The notes under the pieces are model-generated. The model saw nothing but the letters and a program-made list of their open reading frames with translations. It had not been told where the DNA came from and did not search any database. From assembly GCA_003971905.1 (NCBI GenBank), contig RSEE01000017.1, positions 186,001 to 250,000 of the forward strand: a stretch of 64,000 nucleotides of DNA. The letters are read 5' to 3'. Source of the stretch: Moniliella sp. 'wahieum'. Its lineage: Eukaryota. Of this stretch, positions 13,347-62,796 are shown piece by piece; within the stretch, counting starts at the first letter, position 1, and every line of letters begins with the position of its first letter. A program made the position numbers and the translations under genes.

Positions 13347-13949
13347 GCTTCGTCGTTGCTGGGGCCGACGGTCGAGGGCCAGCAGCGAGCACGCGCACAA
13401 GAAAAGAAAAGAAAAGAGAGGATGAGGTGGTGGCGCAGAGACCAGAGCAGCTCGCAAAAGCGGGGCTGGCAGGACCGCGCAGGCAGGACAAGGTGAGTGG
13501 GGCGATGTGCCAGCGAAGGCAACCGAAGTGTGCTGCGTATCCTAGCCGGTGGATCGTGGCTAGTGGCGGGTTTGGGCGTGTGTGGGCCATGTGCTTTCGG
13601 GCGGCGGGCTGGCGAGCGGCCGCAAGACAAACCATCATCACCGGCATCACCGCACTCACCGCACGCGTCCCAGTCCTCATCCATCCGCATCACCACCACG
13701 GACCATCACCAGCATGTCACATGTCAGGCCGCCGGTGTCATGCATGCCACATGTCAGGCCGGGCGCCGCAGACGAGCTTCGGGCGGGGGCGGAATGCGCG
13801 GAATCGACGGTAGTGTCTCACTTTAGCCGGCGGTTTCCGAGCGGCGCTGCCTCCGTGGCCGGCGCACGAGACAAGGCTCGACAGGCCGTGGCTGGCCCCA
13901 GAGGCAGGTACACGCAGGTACGACATGGCCGGCGCCACGAGGCGGCCAC

Positions 13950-14128
13950 TGTCACAGTCGGGCTAAGCGAGGGAGACCAGGATCGGACTAGGCCAAGGGG
14001 TGTAGCAATCGTTCGTGGGGAAGAAGCAAGAACAGAGGACATGGTGCGAAGTGGAAGGAACAGGGAAGGAGCGAGACGCTCGAGACGAAGAAATTGGAAA
14101 TGGGAGCGAGATCAGCCAAACTATGACA
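13950..14128 (-). repeat. 3' LTR (179 bp)
   Basis: Identical to 17399-17579 except for two single-G losses in G runs. Confidence 0.95.
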
Positions 14129-14141
14129 TTGCCCCCTTTCA
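14129..14141 (-). other. Polypurine tract
   Basis: Minus strand reads GAAAGGGGGCAA directly before the 3' LTR, overlapping the integrase ORF stop. Confidence 0.85.
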
Positions 14142-15620
14142 GACCTCATCTCCCGGGCGGCGACGGAGGCGAGAGAGGGCGAGTCGGCGGGCATGGGAGA
14201 CAGGCTTATCGGGGTAGAGGGCGTGGAAACGGACCACTGGCTCGGCGTCATGAGACATGTCCGCAGCGGGTACCCACTCCCGCTCGTGGACAGGATAGCC
14301 CGGAAGTGACAAAGTACTCAATGCGGCCACCACGACCCTTGCGGCGAGAGTCGGGACATGTTCAACCTCGTGATGAACCGCACCATCATCAGCATACTCG
14401 GGAGAGGAGGCGGGGGCTCAATCAAGCGGGCAGGGACCACGTCACCAGGGGTAGGCTCGCAAGCGGGACACATGGAACACGTCATGGAGGTGTAGGTAGT
14501 CGGGGAGGCGGACCTGGTATGCGGCGCGGCCCACGGCGCGGACAATGGGAAAGGGGCCGAGGTAGCGATAGTCGAGGCCGTCAGAAGGCCGCTGGCTGGC
14601 CACATAGCCGTCCCGACGGACCAAGACAGGCTGGCCAGCAGTGAAGGAAGCCGCCTCGGTGCGCTGCTGATCGGCATAATGCTTGTAGCGGTCCTGGGCC
14701 GCGGCGAGCGTGCGGCGGGCCACCGCCTGGGCCGAGCGCAAGTCCTCCAAATATGGCGCAGCATCGGGCACGGGCGAAGTGGAGGGCTCCAACTCCCCCC
14801 GGGGAGAGTAACCATAGGTGAGGACAAAGGGGGACTGGTGGGTGCTCGAGTGGGAGGACGAGTTGTAGGCGAATTCGGCCGTGGGGAGGAGGTCGAACCA
14901 GTTGGACTGCTGCTCGTCGAGGTAGCAGCGGAGGTACTGTTCGAGGATCTGGTTGAGTCGCTCAGTCTGGCCGTCCGTCTGGGGTGGACGCGGTGCTGAG
15001 GCTCGACTTGATGCCCAAGTCGGCACACAAGGCTTGCCAGAAGTGGCTTGTGAAGGTCGGTCCCCGATCACTCACCAGATCCCGGGGAAGGCCATGGTAG
15101 CGAAAGACATGGTGTACAAACTGGCGTGCGAGCTGGGGCGCAGTGTCCGTCGTGTGGGCGGGAATGAAGTGACCCATTTTGGTACAACGATCCACCACCA
15201 CCAGAATCGCGTCGTAACCATTGGATCGGGGAAGCTGGGTATGTGGTCCATCGTCAAGTGGGTCCACGGGCCTTGGGAGGGGAAAGGGCTGAAGGGGTCC
15301 GGCGGGTTGGTGGCAAGGCGCTTTGGTCCGTTGGCAGCGGTCGCACGAGCGCACGTAGGCCCACACGTCGGCGACGGGGCCACCAATATTGAGCGCGGAC
15401 ACGGGCCAACGTCGTCGCGCCCTTCATGGCCCGCCAATGCCGAGTCGTGGGCTTGGTGGAGAATGGCAGCGCGGATCGGCCGGTCGCCGGGGACGTAGAC
15501 CTGGTTTCCGTGCCACAAAAGACCGTCGCGGACCGTCAAAGCATGGGAGGTGGGCTTGGAGCCGTAGCAAGGGACCAACGAGGGTCACGAGCACGAGTTG
15601 GCGGATGCGCTGTCGAATCT
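14139..15620 (-). CDS. Retroelement integrase: HHCC zinc finger, DDE core, GPY/F-SH3 region, chromodomain (frameshifted)
   Basis: ILHQAHDSALAGH, YVRSCDRCQRTK, ILVVVDRCTKMGHFIP, VSDRGPTFTSHFW, PQTDGQTERLNQILEQYLRCY, YLGPFPIV, HDVFHVSRLRAY, then the chromodomain-like GYPVHEREWVPAADMSHDAEPVVRFHALYPDKP. Confidence 0.92.
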
Positions 15621-15849
15621 CGTCGGCAGACGCTCGCTCCACCACCGGTGTATCGGGGTCCGCCGCCATGAGCTTGAGGGCGGCGGCAGAACGTTCGGAC
15701 ATGGGCTCCGCCAGTACTTGAGGTGCCCGCGCCAGCGGGCCGGGAGGGAACCGAGGAGGGAAAAGGAATCGAGTTGACAGAGGGGGGCGAGATGGGGTTG
15801 ATGAGGAGGTGGACTTGGCCGGGGCCCGGGCGAGTGCTGGTGCTGGTGC

Positions 15850-16070
15850 GTTAGTCTTGGTCTTGGGCTGGTCTGGGTGCTGGGGCTGGTCTTGGGGTGG
15901 GGGCTGGTCTTGGTGCTTGGGCTGGTCTTGGGCTGGGGCTGGTCTTGGGGCTGGGGCTGGCTTGGGGCTTGGGCGGGAGTTGGGGCTTGGCGGGAGTTGT
16001 GGGCTGGGGCTGGCTTGGGGCTTGGGCTGGGCTTGGGGCTTGGGCGGGAGTTGGGCTGTGGCCGGGGTAC
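15850..16070. repeat. Degenerate G-rich tandem repeat (GGGCTG/GGTCTT units) encoding a Pro/Gln/Ser spacer between Gag and integrase
   Basis: Directly visible repeat with 6/18-bp periodicity. Confidence 0.8.
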
Positions 16071-16099
16071 AGTCGTGGAAGGCATATGGTGATCACGGC

Positions 16100-17235
16100 A
16101 CTGCGCCTTGAGCGCGGCGCTCGGTGCGCGGGCCGCCGCTTCAGCGGTGGCGGTGACTGCGCTGAGGTCCATGGGCTCCGCTTCGGGCGACAGGGCCGAA
16201 CCAACTGATTGCCGCCCGATCCGGGGAGATGGCGTACCATGAGCGCCCAGCGATTGCGATTGGCGATGTCAATGGCCGCTTGCGCAGTTGTTCGAAACTG
16301 ATCCGTCCCAAGTGAGCCGACTCGCCGCGGGAGGCGATTGCGTCACGCACCGCGGCTTCAAGCCGTACAGAAAGCAATAGTAGCGGTCCTCATCCGACGC
16401 GCTGGGGTTCCAGCGACGCAGCAGAACCGTGAACGTAGCGGAATAGTCCGCTGCAGATCCCGTCTGCCGAAGACGACGACGACGAAACTCCTAACGCCTT
16501 CAGCGCGGGTTGCGCTCGCCCCACTGCTCCAGGAAAGCTGCGCGAAACGCAGCCAAGACTGAGGGCGGGGTGTGGTGCGCGCCTCCAGGGGAAGGGCCAC
16601 CTCCGAGCCGAACTGCTCGACCCAAGTGAGGGCCTCTCCCTGCAGCAGGCCCATGAAGCGGTCGATCCATGCCGCGCCCCATATGCGTGAGGGGACGACG
16701 CGCGCGTAAATCTCGAAGGAGGTGACGACGTGCTGGGCCTGGACCCGGTCACGAGAGTTGGGATTCGCACCAGACGACGGGCGGAAACGAACGGGCTCGA
16801 ACATCTTAGGCTCCGACACCGTGTTCGGGATGGCAGTCAGATCACCATAAGGCCCAGGGGCGGGAGCGGGGGCGGGGCCGAGGACACCACGCCAGTTTGA
16901 GCCTCCCGTACCGAGGCGGCCAACCGGGCCTCTCCGCGGCAAGCGCCGCCTCCTCCCGCGCTGACGGAGGCGGTGCTCACGGCGCTTCGCCTCTTGCTCA
17001 TCCTCGAAAGCGCGGCGCTGGTCCTCCTGGGCTGCAAGGTAGGCCTGATTTTCCCGGGCTCCGTCAACAGAAGCTGGCGCATTCTGGGGGCCTCATCGAC
17101 CCGACGCTGAGCGGCCTCGAGGCCCAGCCCGGACAGGTCGGAGGCAGGCAATGTATACCCGGGGGCGCGGGCGCAACAGACGGAGCTGCATGGGGGGGTC
17201 CAGAGGGGCCAGCCGGGTGGAACCACTCGGGCCAT
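16100..17235 (-). CDS. Retroelement Gag (frameshifted)
   Basis: FMGLLQGEALTW, LRQTGSAADYSATF, FLYGLKP and EPMDLS are Ty3/Gypsy Gag capsid and C-terminal motifs; ATG at 17235. Confidence 0.8.
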
Positions 17236-17387
17236 CGTCGTCGAACGGAGCGTCAGAGGGGGGGTCGGACGGGGGTCGGATTGGGCCGCGCCGCGCGATG
17301 GGTTGCGCGCGCGCTAGGGTTACTGGGGTCAGGGGGGTTGTCGTGGATCGAGGACATCTCTGGTCGGGCTCGCCTGTTGACGGTTAG

Positions 17388-17398
17388 ACGAACGATAA
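17388..17398 (-). promoter_or_regulatory. Self-priming primer binding site (non-tRNA)
   Basis: Minus strand after the 5' LTR reads TTATCGTTCGT with no TGG. ATCGTTCGT is complementary to ACGAACGAT inside the LTR (17467-17459, minus strand). Confidence 0.8.
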
Positions 17399-17579
17399 TG
17401 TCACAGTCGGGGCTAAGGCGAGGGAGACCAGGATCGGACTAGGCCAAGGGGTGTAGCAATCGTTCGTGGGGAAGAAGCAAGAACAGAGGACATGGTGCGA
17501 AGTGGAAGGAACAGGGAAGGAGCGAGACGCTCGAGACGAAGAAATTGGAAATGGGAGCGAGATCAGCCAAACTATGACA
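17399..17579 (-). repeat. 5' LTR (181 bp)
   Basis: Direct repeat of 13950-14128. Confidence 0.95.
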
Positions 17580-18037
17580 GCCATCCATAGCCACTAGTCA
17601 GTACGATGCCCTTCTATTCATCCAAATCCTCTATTGCCCACTAAACTAGCCCATGTCAAACCATCCATCATCAATCGAGCGTTTGAAAATGGTTTGGGAG
17701 GACCGGCACACCCAAAGACACAGCGTGGCCTTAGTAGCCCCTGCGTGCATCAGCTGCATTAGCTGCATCGCCCATCGCAGCCGCAACTTTCAGTCCAAGC
17801 TGAACCCATTCCGACGCCCCACAACGTTTCAGCGCCTTATACTATAGGGTCGCTAATGGGCTTCCAGACCTTCAAGGTCCGGTCGCTGGTCACCGCGTGA
17901 AAAACGCTTAAGCGTGGCAGGCGAAACGCTGAATACGATTCGGCTGTGTTTTGTTGCTGCCCCTGGTGCCGTCGTCTCCAGCGGCTTTCAACCGAGGGGG
18001 TCAATCGGACGTCATTCTCGCGTTTCTTGCTGAACAC

Positions 18038-30354: not shown

Positions 30355-32668
30355 ATGGCCCAATTCTCCCACCCCCTCATCCGTGACGGCTGGTTCCACG
30401 AGATCAACTCCCAATGGCCTGGCGAGGCCATGGGCTTGCAGGTGGTCCGCATCCTCCACCACGAGCAGAGCAAGTTCCAGGACGTACTCGTCTTGAGAGC
30501 ACCACCTTTGGCAATGTTCTCGTTCTCGACGGCGTCATCCAAGCCACCGAGCGCGACGAGTTTTCGTACCAGGAGATGATCGCCCACCTCCCCCTGGCCA
30601 GCCACCCTAACCCCGAGCGCGTGCTGGTCATTGGCGGTGGCGATGGCGGCGTGCTGCGCGAGGTGGTCAAGCATGACTCGGTCAAGGAGGCCGTCCTGTG
30701 CGACATTGACGAGGCTGTGCCCCGTGTCAGCAAGCTGTACCTGCCCCACATGGCCCAGGGCCTGACGCACCCTAAGAGCACGGTGCACATTGGCGATGGC
30801 TTTGCCTTCCTCAAGCAGCCCGAGAACAAGGGGGCATTTGACGTGATCATCACGGATTCCTCCGACCCTGTGGGCCCAGCTCAGGCGCTATTTGAAAAGC
30901 CGTACTTCCAACTGCTCAAGGAGGCCCTCAAGCCTGGCGGACACATCTCTACCCAGGCCGAATCGCTCTGGTTGCACCTTCCCCTGATCCGCGAACTGCG
31001 TCAGAGCACCAAGGAAATCTTCTCTGTGGCCGATTATGCCTTTACCACCATCCCCACCTACCCCTCTGGGCAAATTGGCTTTGTCATCTGCTCGACCGAG
31101 CCGACGCGCAACGTGCGTGTGCCTGTGCGTGAGGTTCCGGGGTGCAAGTACTACAATGCCGATGTTCACAAGGCGGCCTTTGTCCTCCCCGAGTTTGCTC
31201 GCGCGGTCATTGAGGATGGGGCGGCGGCGCCGGGCCCTGTCGTGGCCTCGGGCGATGGTTCGGGCCCTGCGTCCCGTGACGCTAAGAAGATTCTTCTGTT
31301 GGGCTCGGGCTACGTTGCGCGTCCGTTCGCCGAGTACGTTCTGCGTTACCCGAGTACAGCTTGACGGTCGCATCGTCGCGGTTGGCCAATGCCCAGCGCC
31401 TGGCTGAGGGTCTGGCGCGTACGACGGCCACTTCGGTTGATGTGAACAACCATGCTGCTCTGGCCGAGCTGGTGGGGCAGCACGACATTGTCATCTCGCT
31501 CATCCCCTACATTTACCACGCCAAGGTGATCGAGGCGGCGATCGAGAAGAAGGTGGATGTGGTTACCACTTCCTACGTCAGCCCTGCCATCCGCGAACTG
31601 GCGCCCAAGATTAAGGCAGCGGGTATTACGGTGATGAACGAGATTGGTCTCGACCCTGGTATTGACCACCTCTATGCCGTCAAGGCCATTGCCGACATTC
31701 ACGCTCAGGGGAAGAAGGTCAAGGAGTTCTACTCGTACTGTGGTGGTCTGCCTGCCCCCGAGGCGGCAGACAACCCGCTGGGATACAAGTTTTCATGGTC
31801 CTCGCGTGGCGTTCTGCTTGCCCTCCGCAACACGGCCAAGTTCTGGCAGAAGGGGAGTAAGGAGCCGGTCACCATTCCTGGCCCTGAGCTGATGAAGTCG
31901 GCCAAGCCTTACTACATTAGCCCCGCCTTTGCCTTTGTCGCGTACCCCAACCGTGACAGCACGCCGTACCGCGAATGGTACAACATCCCCGAGGCTGAAA
32001 CGGTGGTCCGTGGCACGATGCGCTACCAGGGCTTCCCGGAGTTTGTCGAGGCACTGGTCAAGCTCGGGTTCCTCGATGACTTTGCCAAGCCTTACCTCAC
32101 TCTTCCCAACACCAAGTCCTGGGCTGAAGTTTTGGCGGCGGTGACGGGCTCGCAGAGCACGGAGCCGACTTCGCTTGCGGCCGCGGTGCGCAAGATTGTG
32201 GACTTTAAGACGGAGGAGGAGGCGGACATGGTGCTCCGCGGTTTGCGCTGGCTTGACCTCTTTAGCTCAGAGGTGACCGCCACCGTTCGTGGCACGGCAG
32301 AGCAGGAGAAGGAGCGGCAGGGTAACCTTCTGGACTCGCTCTGCGCTACGCTCGAGCTTAAGTGCCAGTACGGTCCCGAGGAGCGTGACATGGTCATGCT
32401 TCAGCACAAGTTCGTCACCGAGGACAAGGATGGTAACGAGGCGACCCTCACCTCGACGCTGCTCGACTTTGGTGTTCCCAACGGCTTCTCTTCGATGGCC
32501 AAGACGGTGGGTGTGCCGTGTGCAATCGCCACCAAGCTCATCCTTGAGGGCCACCCGGGGCTGAAGAAGCCTGGCGAGATTGTCGCCCCGCACTCGCTCG
32601 ACGTTACGGAGCCCATCCGTGCTGAGCTTGAGAAGGAGGGCATTGCTCTTGAGGAGCGCTGGGTCTAA
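30355..32668 (+). CDS. Bifunctional spermidine synthase - saccharopine dehydrogenase (SPE-SDH, Spe3-Lys9 fusion)
   Basis: [14 protein letters not shown] and [13 protein letters not shown] (spermidine synthase) run in frame into [14 protein letters not shown], followed by [18 protein letters not shown] and YKFSWSSRG (Lys9-type). Apparent 1-nt losses near 30493 and 31350. Confidence 0.97.
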
Positions 32669-61700: not shown

Positions 61701-62796
61701 TTTTGTTCGTGTCGAGGTTGTCAAAGAAACGATTGGCATTGGCCTGCTCTGCGGGGGTGATGTCCCAGACCGGAGCACCATATGACCCGGTCGGCTGCGC
61801 GGAGACGGATGCAAACCCGGTCGCTGAACGGGATGGAAGCGTGCCTGTGCGCTGGGGGGCAATGGGCGCAGGAGAGAAGGCAGTAATGGACTGGCGCGAG
61901 GGGGCGCGCTGAACCTGTGCAGTAATGGACTGGCGCGAGGGGGCGCGCTGAACCTGTGCAGGAGTGTATCCGCGCGAGGGGGCGCGCTGGACCTGCGCAG
62001 GAGTGTATCCGCGCGAAGGAGGCCGGGCGGGAGTGTAAGATCGGGTGGGCAAGGATTGGCCACCGGAGGCTTGCTCGTACAGTCCCGGCGGCAGCGAGGC
62101 GGGGATACTGGGGATGGAACCGCTCATGACGCCCTGGATGTAGTACATGGCGATGGTGAAATCAGTCAAATCCAGTGCACCGCGCGAGTGGGTGTCGGCC
62201 AACGCCCAGATGTGTCCGAGCTTGTCGAACGGGAGCTTGGACTTGAGGAAGACTTCCTTGGCCTTTGCGCCATCCAGCAGTCCGCCTACGGGGCCGGCGT
62301 TTGCAAAGATACGCGCGTAGCGTGACTTGGACGCGGGGCTCAGGTCAATAGCAGCGGCCGGAGTGGCAGCGGCGGCGCGCGGGACGGACATGACGGAGGC
62401 CGAACGGGAGGGGGGCTGCTGGACCTGTGGATACACAACGCCGTCGAACACGGGCGGGGCGATGGGGCTCGAGGCGAGGGCAGGGACGATGGCGTGGCCC
62501 TGCTGGGCATGGGAGATGAGGCGGAGGGCGGTGCCAAAGCTGCTGGGGTGGGAGGAAGCCGACATTGTCGCTGTCGGCGATGGCCCAGATCTGGCCGAGG
62601 ACCGCGGGGGGGAGGCGGGAGGCGGCAAAGAACTTGACGGCCTGGTCGCCCACCAGCACGCCAGACTGGCCTGGATCAGCGAGCGACCAGAGATGGGCAA
62701 ACGCGGTGCGCTCGGCCGGGGTGAGTGCCACTGCGCAGGCGGGCGAGGGGCTGTCAGGATCGGATGGGGGGTCGAGGGGGGGCACGTACACGACAT
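55721..62796 (-). CDS. EDE1: Ede1/Eps15-like endocytic scaffold: three EH domains, coiled coil, long low-complexity region, C-terminal UBA
   Basis: LGQIWAIADSDN, LGHIWALADTHSRGALDLTDFTIAM and ADVTQTGSLSRDEFAVAMHL (EH domains); NPF/DPF motifs; VKRLTAMGFGRSQVVSALELANY (UBA); stop at 55721. Confidence 0.9.
61880..62016 (-). repeat. 39-bp coding tandem repeat (about 3.5 copies) between EH2 and EH3
   Basis: Encodes PSRGYTPAQVQRA / PSRQSITAQVQRA units. Confidence 0.9.

Follow-up and report, generated by a model that had tools for sequence, protein, structure and literature searches.

A very probably self-priming Tf1-type chromovirus in Moniliella sp. 'wahieum' and small inverted-U3 elements that may record snap-back of its strong-stop DNA

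The window analysed here is the whole 64,000-nt stretch of contig RSEE01000017.1 of Moniliella sp. 'wahieum', and it contains on its minus strand a short copy of an LTR retrotransposon. The parts of this copy are as follows.

17580..17584, minus strand: target-site duplication, 5' copy, 4 of 5 bases matching the 3' copy
17399..17579, minus strand: 5' LTR, 181 bp, TG...CA
17468..17579, minus strand: putative U3, 112 nt, pyrimidine-rich, the portion of the LTR that is inverted in the small elements described below
17459..17467, minus strand: self-primer of 9 nt, predicted start of R and of the transcript
17416..17435, minus strand: U5 arm of the U5-leader stem, from folding and duplex computation
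17397..17398, minus strand: TT spacer of 2 nt, mirrored by the AA that separates polypurine tract and 3' LTR
17388..17396, minus strand: primer-binding site (PBS) ATCGTTCGT, exact complement of 17467-17459
17356..17375, minus strand: leader arm of the stem, extending to the probable gag ATG at 17357
14141..17357, minus strand: internal region with a gag part, two deletions and the integrase and chromodomain region
14129..14140, minus strand: polypurine tract and AA spacer, from the sequence
13950..14128, minus strand: 3' LTR, from LTR comparison
13945..13949, minus strand: target-site duplication, 3' copy

Two single-base gaps were the sole differences between the 5' and 3' LTRs. The parts of the internal region were named via DNA alignment to copies of 5.7-5.8 kb elsewhere in the genome, with which the window copy shares 90-96% identity in aligned DNA, and via Pfam searches on those copies. 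According to this alignment the window copy carries a first deletion of about 0.5 kb, which removed the zinc knuckle and protease region, and a second of about 1.7 kb, which removed RT and RNase H. None of the four ORFs of the window element that were tried gave a Pfam match, and their reading frames are broken. Among seven ORFs of the longer copies Pfam identified a zinc knuckle, protease, RT, RNase H, integrase, SH3_Tf2-1 and a chromodomain, and the closest solved RT to that of the longer copies was the one of Ty3. The chromovirus hallmarks of TG...CA LTRs, a polypurine tract and a 5-bp duplication were all present (4 of 5 bases for the window's own duplication), and normal copies made 5-bp target duplications in 4 of 4 cases checked. 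The element is a Ty3/gypsy chromovirus, and the window copy lacks protease, RT and RNase H.

We searched the genome of 69.5 Mb on 223 contigs and found 268 matches to the U3 start of this family, here called family A, at up to 3 mismatches. Among 22 copies whose 5' ends were read, 12 showed the first deletion of the window copy, 8 retained the protease region and 2 broke off earlier. Because 12 of 22 share this deletion, the RT-less form has spread as a subfamily, and the RT-less derivative was the commonest type among copies with an internal region. The frames of the element copies were interrupted by many single-base gaps. The sequence-only reading had proposed that the RT-less element needs a helper; this was right and describes an ordinary situation, RT-bearing copies of the same family being present in the genome. 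We consider it likely that the window element is a young, internally deleted chromovirus of the Tf1/sushi type with a self-primer of 9 nt.

Some further observations were made on the way. A tandem repeat with a unit of 17-18 nt lies at window positions 15858-16085, inside the element at its first deletion, and varies among copies. One long copy (L031, G000:C48:440942-446706) has its 3' LTR inverted and hence a U3 at both ends; here the polypurine tract and AA run into further A's followed by the reversed U5 end, as if unprocessed ends had been joined, and the target duplication matches at 4 of 5 bases. Outside the element, the window encodes on the plus strand at 30387-32668 a spermidine synthase and a saccharopine dehydrogenase; their frames overlap and probably belong to a single fused gene that an intron or a sequencing gap interrupts. 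The fusion of these two enzymes is a fungal one, and the adjacent frames point to a fungal host. Three copies of a 39-nt unit were seen inside an EH-domain gene at 61880-62019.

The 18 nt past the LTR contained no TGG, as had been claimed for the PBS, and the nine nucleotides at 17396-17388 were confirmed as the exact complement of 17467-17459, with all coordinates right. An LTR match of at least 9 nt was reached by chance in none of 1000 LTR shuffles, in 4 of 5000 first-order Markov resamples and at 29 of 5000 random window positions. A second inverted repeat had been described between U5 (17430-17416) and the leader (17375-17361). It proved to be real and longer than first described, with 16 bp in a duplex of -25.5 kcal/mol. 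Folding of the leader from 17467 to 17350 recovered this stem and missed the primer:PBS helix: the 76-nt piece 17435-17360 folded with a z of -3.80, with 0 of 200 shuffles as good, and the whole 118-nt leader reached a z of only -1.37 with a minimum-energy structure that lacked the helix. We did not count this absence against the model, because the helix crosses the stem and nested folding cannot show it. With the RNA cut to 82 nt, before the leader arm, the primer:PBS helix formed at pair probabilities of 0.75-1.0. A further upstream helix between the U5 end and the sequence just 3' of the primer would contribute little, about 3 kcal/mol for family A and about 2 for family B, with pairing that differs between families. 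The base following the PBS (17387 in the window) is a C in 7 of the 8 LTRs compared below and would face the cap G of the primer; that RT copies the cap is a guess.

Comparison among copies and families supplied the covariation by which the sequence-only reading had wanted its structure checked, with compensatory changes in the stem between families A and B and in primer and PBS in a variant of family D. Primer and PBS were unchanged in all 23 leader copies of family A and all 5 of its sister family B, which has the same 9-mer in a different LTR. The U5-leader stem was kept, with changes, in families B and C; between A and B, two C-G pairs of A are U-A in B and one is U-G. Both degraded copies of family C kept the stem and had a broken primer:PBS match. 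In the family D variant one PBS base and the matching primer base were both changed, and the match was exact in 4 of 4 variant copies fetched; a fifth, decayed copy kept the change and had two other mismatches.

The comparison was extended to eight LTRs, comprising four families of this genome and four metagenome elements from three families. The metagenome set held 80 loci, of which those of at least 3 kb were tested; distant direct repeats were found in 7, and after removal of two coding repeats and one without a usable junction 4 were left. For two of the metagenome loci (L140 and L166) the LTR end was placed by eye, since the contig stops within the 3' LTR. Every one of the eight LTRs contained a complement of 9-14 nt to its own PBS, in six different sequences, with lengths of 9-10 nt in family D, 14 nt in family E and 10-11 nt in the four metagenome elements. 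The primers began with A in 8 of 8 and were preceded by a pyrimidine in 7 of 8. A TATA-like box lay 26-37 nt upstream of the primer in 5 of the 8 LTRs; in the U3 of the window element none was seen ahead of the primer.

The competing explanation is that a host tRNA, by its 3' end or as a half molecule, primes reverse transcription and that the LTR match is incidental. The anticodon loop of tRNA-Arg(ACG) resembles the first six primer bases, and the tRNA set is incomplete, with 63 of 2133 candidates scored. Half-tRNA priming does exist in copia lineages, according to the available part of PMC6317226. Against this stand the lack of TGG after the LTR and the finding that the PBS had no complement longer than 4 nt to the only 5 distinct host tRNA genes compared, which were those for Ala, Arg and Thr. 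Moreover, each of the six distinct PBS sequences has its complement in its own LTR, and a compensatory change was seen. We therefore regard priming by a host tRNA as very improbable. The half molecule of tRNA-Arg(ACG) was rejected as a candidate: a pattern describing an Arg(ACG) gene without an intron matched 7 times, compared with 39 control matches, and the primer sequence occurred in none of them. About 40 of the 63 scored tRNA matches share one score, and those checked were tRNA-Ala(AGC) on many contigs, possibly a tRNA-derived repeat.

Taken together, the chromovirus domains, the family-specific primer sites, the compensation in the stem and the small inverted-U3 elements described below support the Tf1-type reading, and we consider self-priming of this element highly probable. 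Transcription would start at or near 17467, as far as can be read from the position of the primer. The self-priming layout itself is already known; to our knowledge self-priming has been shown experimentally in Tf1, and elsewhere it has been inferred from complementarity alone. The new part, which the sequence-only reading had missed, is a group of small elements in the same genome that consist of LTR sequence with an inverted U3.

In these elements a complete LTR, the spacer and the PBS are directly followed by a reversed U3 that runs as far as its first base. We searched for such junctions in this one host genome and read the matches, which yielded 18 loci (13 in family A, 4 in family B and 1 in family E) that correspond to 13 insertions by their shared flanks. 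Normal LTR-leader junctions were read 23 times in family A, 5 times in B and twice in E. In families A and B the inverted form accounts for 17 of 45, about one third, of the PBS junctions read. Family D had none in 11 matches. Reversed-pattern controls for the junction searches gave 0 and 2 matches, and four loci with PBS-like matches at 3 mismatches (L093, L095, L094 and L096) were not LTR junctions and were dropped. Short inward-facing U3 pairs occurred twice among the first 100 of the 268 listed U3 starts of family A and twice among 100 of 104 of family B, in all four cases with the PBS junction. Each small element matched the LTR of its own family. In one metagenome family the predicted junction was found at 0 of 186 loci; these had been selected by their RT and test the prediction poorly.

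The terminal inverted repeats of the small elements are 121 bp long, made up of U3 and 9 nt of R, and enclose a non-palindromic core of 62 nt. Young copies are nearly identical, in an assembly with many unreliable single-base gaps; in old copies the two arms are only 76-87% alike. Perfect 5-bp direct duplications flanked five insertions (L042; L043 with L186; L044 with L045; L078; L088). The other 8 of 13 had no perfect duplication: that of L084 was off by a homopolymer slip, those of L182 with L046 and of L083 with L047 matched at 4 of 5 bases and that of L041 at 3 of 5, and at four insertions the ends were decayed or missing. Four pairs of loci on different contigs share their flanks and the complete junction. 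L186 has 5 extra bases at the junction, where its twin with the same flanks is exact. The elements L046, L182, L079 and L090 are located next to LTRs that belong to other families (B and D), in each case at the U5 end.

Two structures depart from the common layout. L083 and L047, which represent one insertion, contain only 11 nt of inverted U3 followed by a U5 end, and L183 of family E has an inverted piece of U5 on the left and a shortened right arm. A simple snap-back model does not give these structures, and they were therefore counted against it. A pattern recurring in families A and D (L083, L047 and L184) is an LTR with PBS and a few more bases, at whose end the final 8-12 nt of U5 stand a second time. 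In another odd integrated cDNA (L091, G000:C36:458673-458842) the 7 terminal nt of U5, a mutated PBS and some 55 nt of leader are fused to part of an inverted U3, within a perfect 5-bp duplication.

We propose snap-back of strong-stop DNA as the probable origin of the small elements. The RNA would start at or near 17467, and its first 9 nt would pair with the PBS inside a predicted three-helix pseudoknot, for which complementarity and covariation were observed. By analogy with Tf1, RNase H would cut after nucleotide 9 and RT would extend the primer, both enzymes being supplied in trans by RT-bearing copies. The plus-strand strong-stop DNA would then copy the primer and end as U3-R-U5-TT-PBS-3'. 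Since the element is primed by its own R start, the PBS tail can pair with R; this pairing of the 3' end might take place within one strand or between two such strands, and extension would then run over U3 to its terminus. If two strong-stop strands primed each other, the result would be a molecule of about 300 bp that bears a U3 attachment end on either side. We propose two mutually primed strands because concerted integration needs two double-stranded ends; the origin of the second strand is the weakest step of the mechanism. Integrase could insert this molecule with a 5-bp duplication, and the central bubble would be resolved at replication.

When the 192-nt strong-stop sequence was folded as DNA, its 3' end was paired to R1-9 at 0.92-1.0, and families B and E behaved likewise. 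For family D, with 441 nt between the sites, the pairing was 0.03, which is in line with the lack of inverted-U3 elements in this family, the numbers being small. Snap-back was not predicted for the metagenome element L166. About half of the cDNA in Tf1 particles retains a 3'-terminal, single-stranded copy of the PBS, as stated in PMC11042837, citing Atwood-Moore 2006. The junction of the small elements leaves room for more than one transcription start: the product would be the same if the RNA began a few bases further upstream or if the 3' end fell short by a few bases.

An alternative that we consider unlikely is that the small elements arose in the chromosome, either by annealing of PBS-tailed cDNA to the R start of a resident LTR without integrase or by fold-back of a replication fork at the 9-nt inverted repeat. 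Tf1 cDNA does insert at PBS homologies without integrase, as the consulted part of PMC11042837 reports, and the elements with odd or shortened ends (L079, L090, L083, L047 and L183) may have arisen in this way. Neither chromosomal route, however, predicts that both ends stop at the TG...CA termini and that a 5-bp direct duplication encloses the entire unit, as was seen in five insertions, and the flanks of the small elements are not inverted copies of each other. Somewhat less likely again is that an over-long RNA primer, which began in or before U3 and was cut after nucleotide 9 of R, served as the template of the inverted U3 and that DNA snap-back played no part, an explanation that would still require self-priming. 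Alternative start sites are used by Tf2 (PMC5341516, available portion), and the 11 nt of inverted U3 in L083 and L047 would fit a start 11 nt upstream. Most right arms, however, reach the first base of U3 and end in CA, and an RNA start or read-through has no reason to end exactly there. That the small elements are a MITE-like family spreading as a unit, or hairpin artefacts of long-read assembly, is most improbable despite the MITE-like look of 121-bp terminal inverted repeats and the richness of the assembly in single-base gaps, since there were separate origins from three LTR families in old and young variants, a non-palindromic core, diverged old arms and four twin pairs on different contigs; their ends are U3 termini of three LTR families and not those of one family amplified as a unit by a transposase.

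If made by snap-back as proposed, the inverted-U3 elements are a physical record of the PBS end pairing with the R start and being extended by RT, readable from the assembly. They indicate that self-primed reverse transcription has an error path of its own and offer a simple signature for other genomes, and the snap-back model predicts a molecule that should be findable in Tf1 particles. A broader idea, for and against which we see about equal grounds, is that self-priming has a built-in cost, in that strong-stop DNA, being self-complementary, uses its own R start as a template and gives rise to integrable molecules with a U3 at either end, which would form a general and unreported class of dead-end miniature elements. 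If this is true, such elements mark self-priming lineages in any assembly, where annotation would file them as MITEs or solo LTRs. Each small element is a 121-bp perfect hairpin with two promoters facing each other; searches for Argonaute and Piwi gave no match in this genome, so we propose no silencing by hairpin RNA, and the host may lack RNA interference. The integrated unit should itself be a dead end, because it has neither a polypurine tract nor a second R.

Judged from its sequence features, the element appears to work like Tf1 and to share the sequence characters of the Tf1/sushi group (PMC7175516, PMC4600332, PMC6317226, PMC2864245). In the portions of the cited papers available, Tf1 and Tf2 of Schizosaccharomyces pombe and the other members of the group (Tj1, Tosmo1-3, Tcry1 and Tcn1) show the same order of protease, RT, RNase H, integrase and chromodomain (PMC7175516, PMC4600332, PMC6317226), and likewise a PBS complementary to the R start and a 5-bp duplication (PMC7175516, PMC4600332, PMC6317226). 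The flanking U5-leader helix is common to this element and to the three-duplex pretzel described for relatives of Tf1, in which the helices cross (10.1101/2022.12.06.519325, as far as its accessible text goes). For Tf1, cleavage by RNase H that releases the primer has been shown, as reviewed in the part of PMC7175516 at hand, which gives a primer length of 11 nt versus the 9 nt found here. A difference from the group is that the most numerous copies with an internal region are here an RT-less derivative. In the literature searched we found no integrated LTR-PBS-inverted-U3 unit for any member of the Tf1/sushi group; primary Tf1 papers, most subscription journals and supplements lay outside this search, and a prior description is possible. 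MITEs are short, non-coding elements with terminal inverted repeats, and TRIM-type elements are short, non-coding and derived from LTR elements. The small elements have terminal inverted repeats as in a MITE and an LTR origin as in a TRIM, and unlike in either the repeats consist of U3 and 9 nt of R. The closest process is that described for Tf1 insertions by Li et al. 2022 (PMC11042837, in the part available), in which the same annealing of the single-stranded PBS copy at the cDNA's 3' end to a complementary sequence left aberrant insertions. In that case the pairing partner lies in the chromosome and a tandem or truncated element results, whereas in the elements described here the partner would be the element's own R start, and the product carries two U3 ends and a 5-bp duplication.
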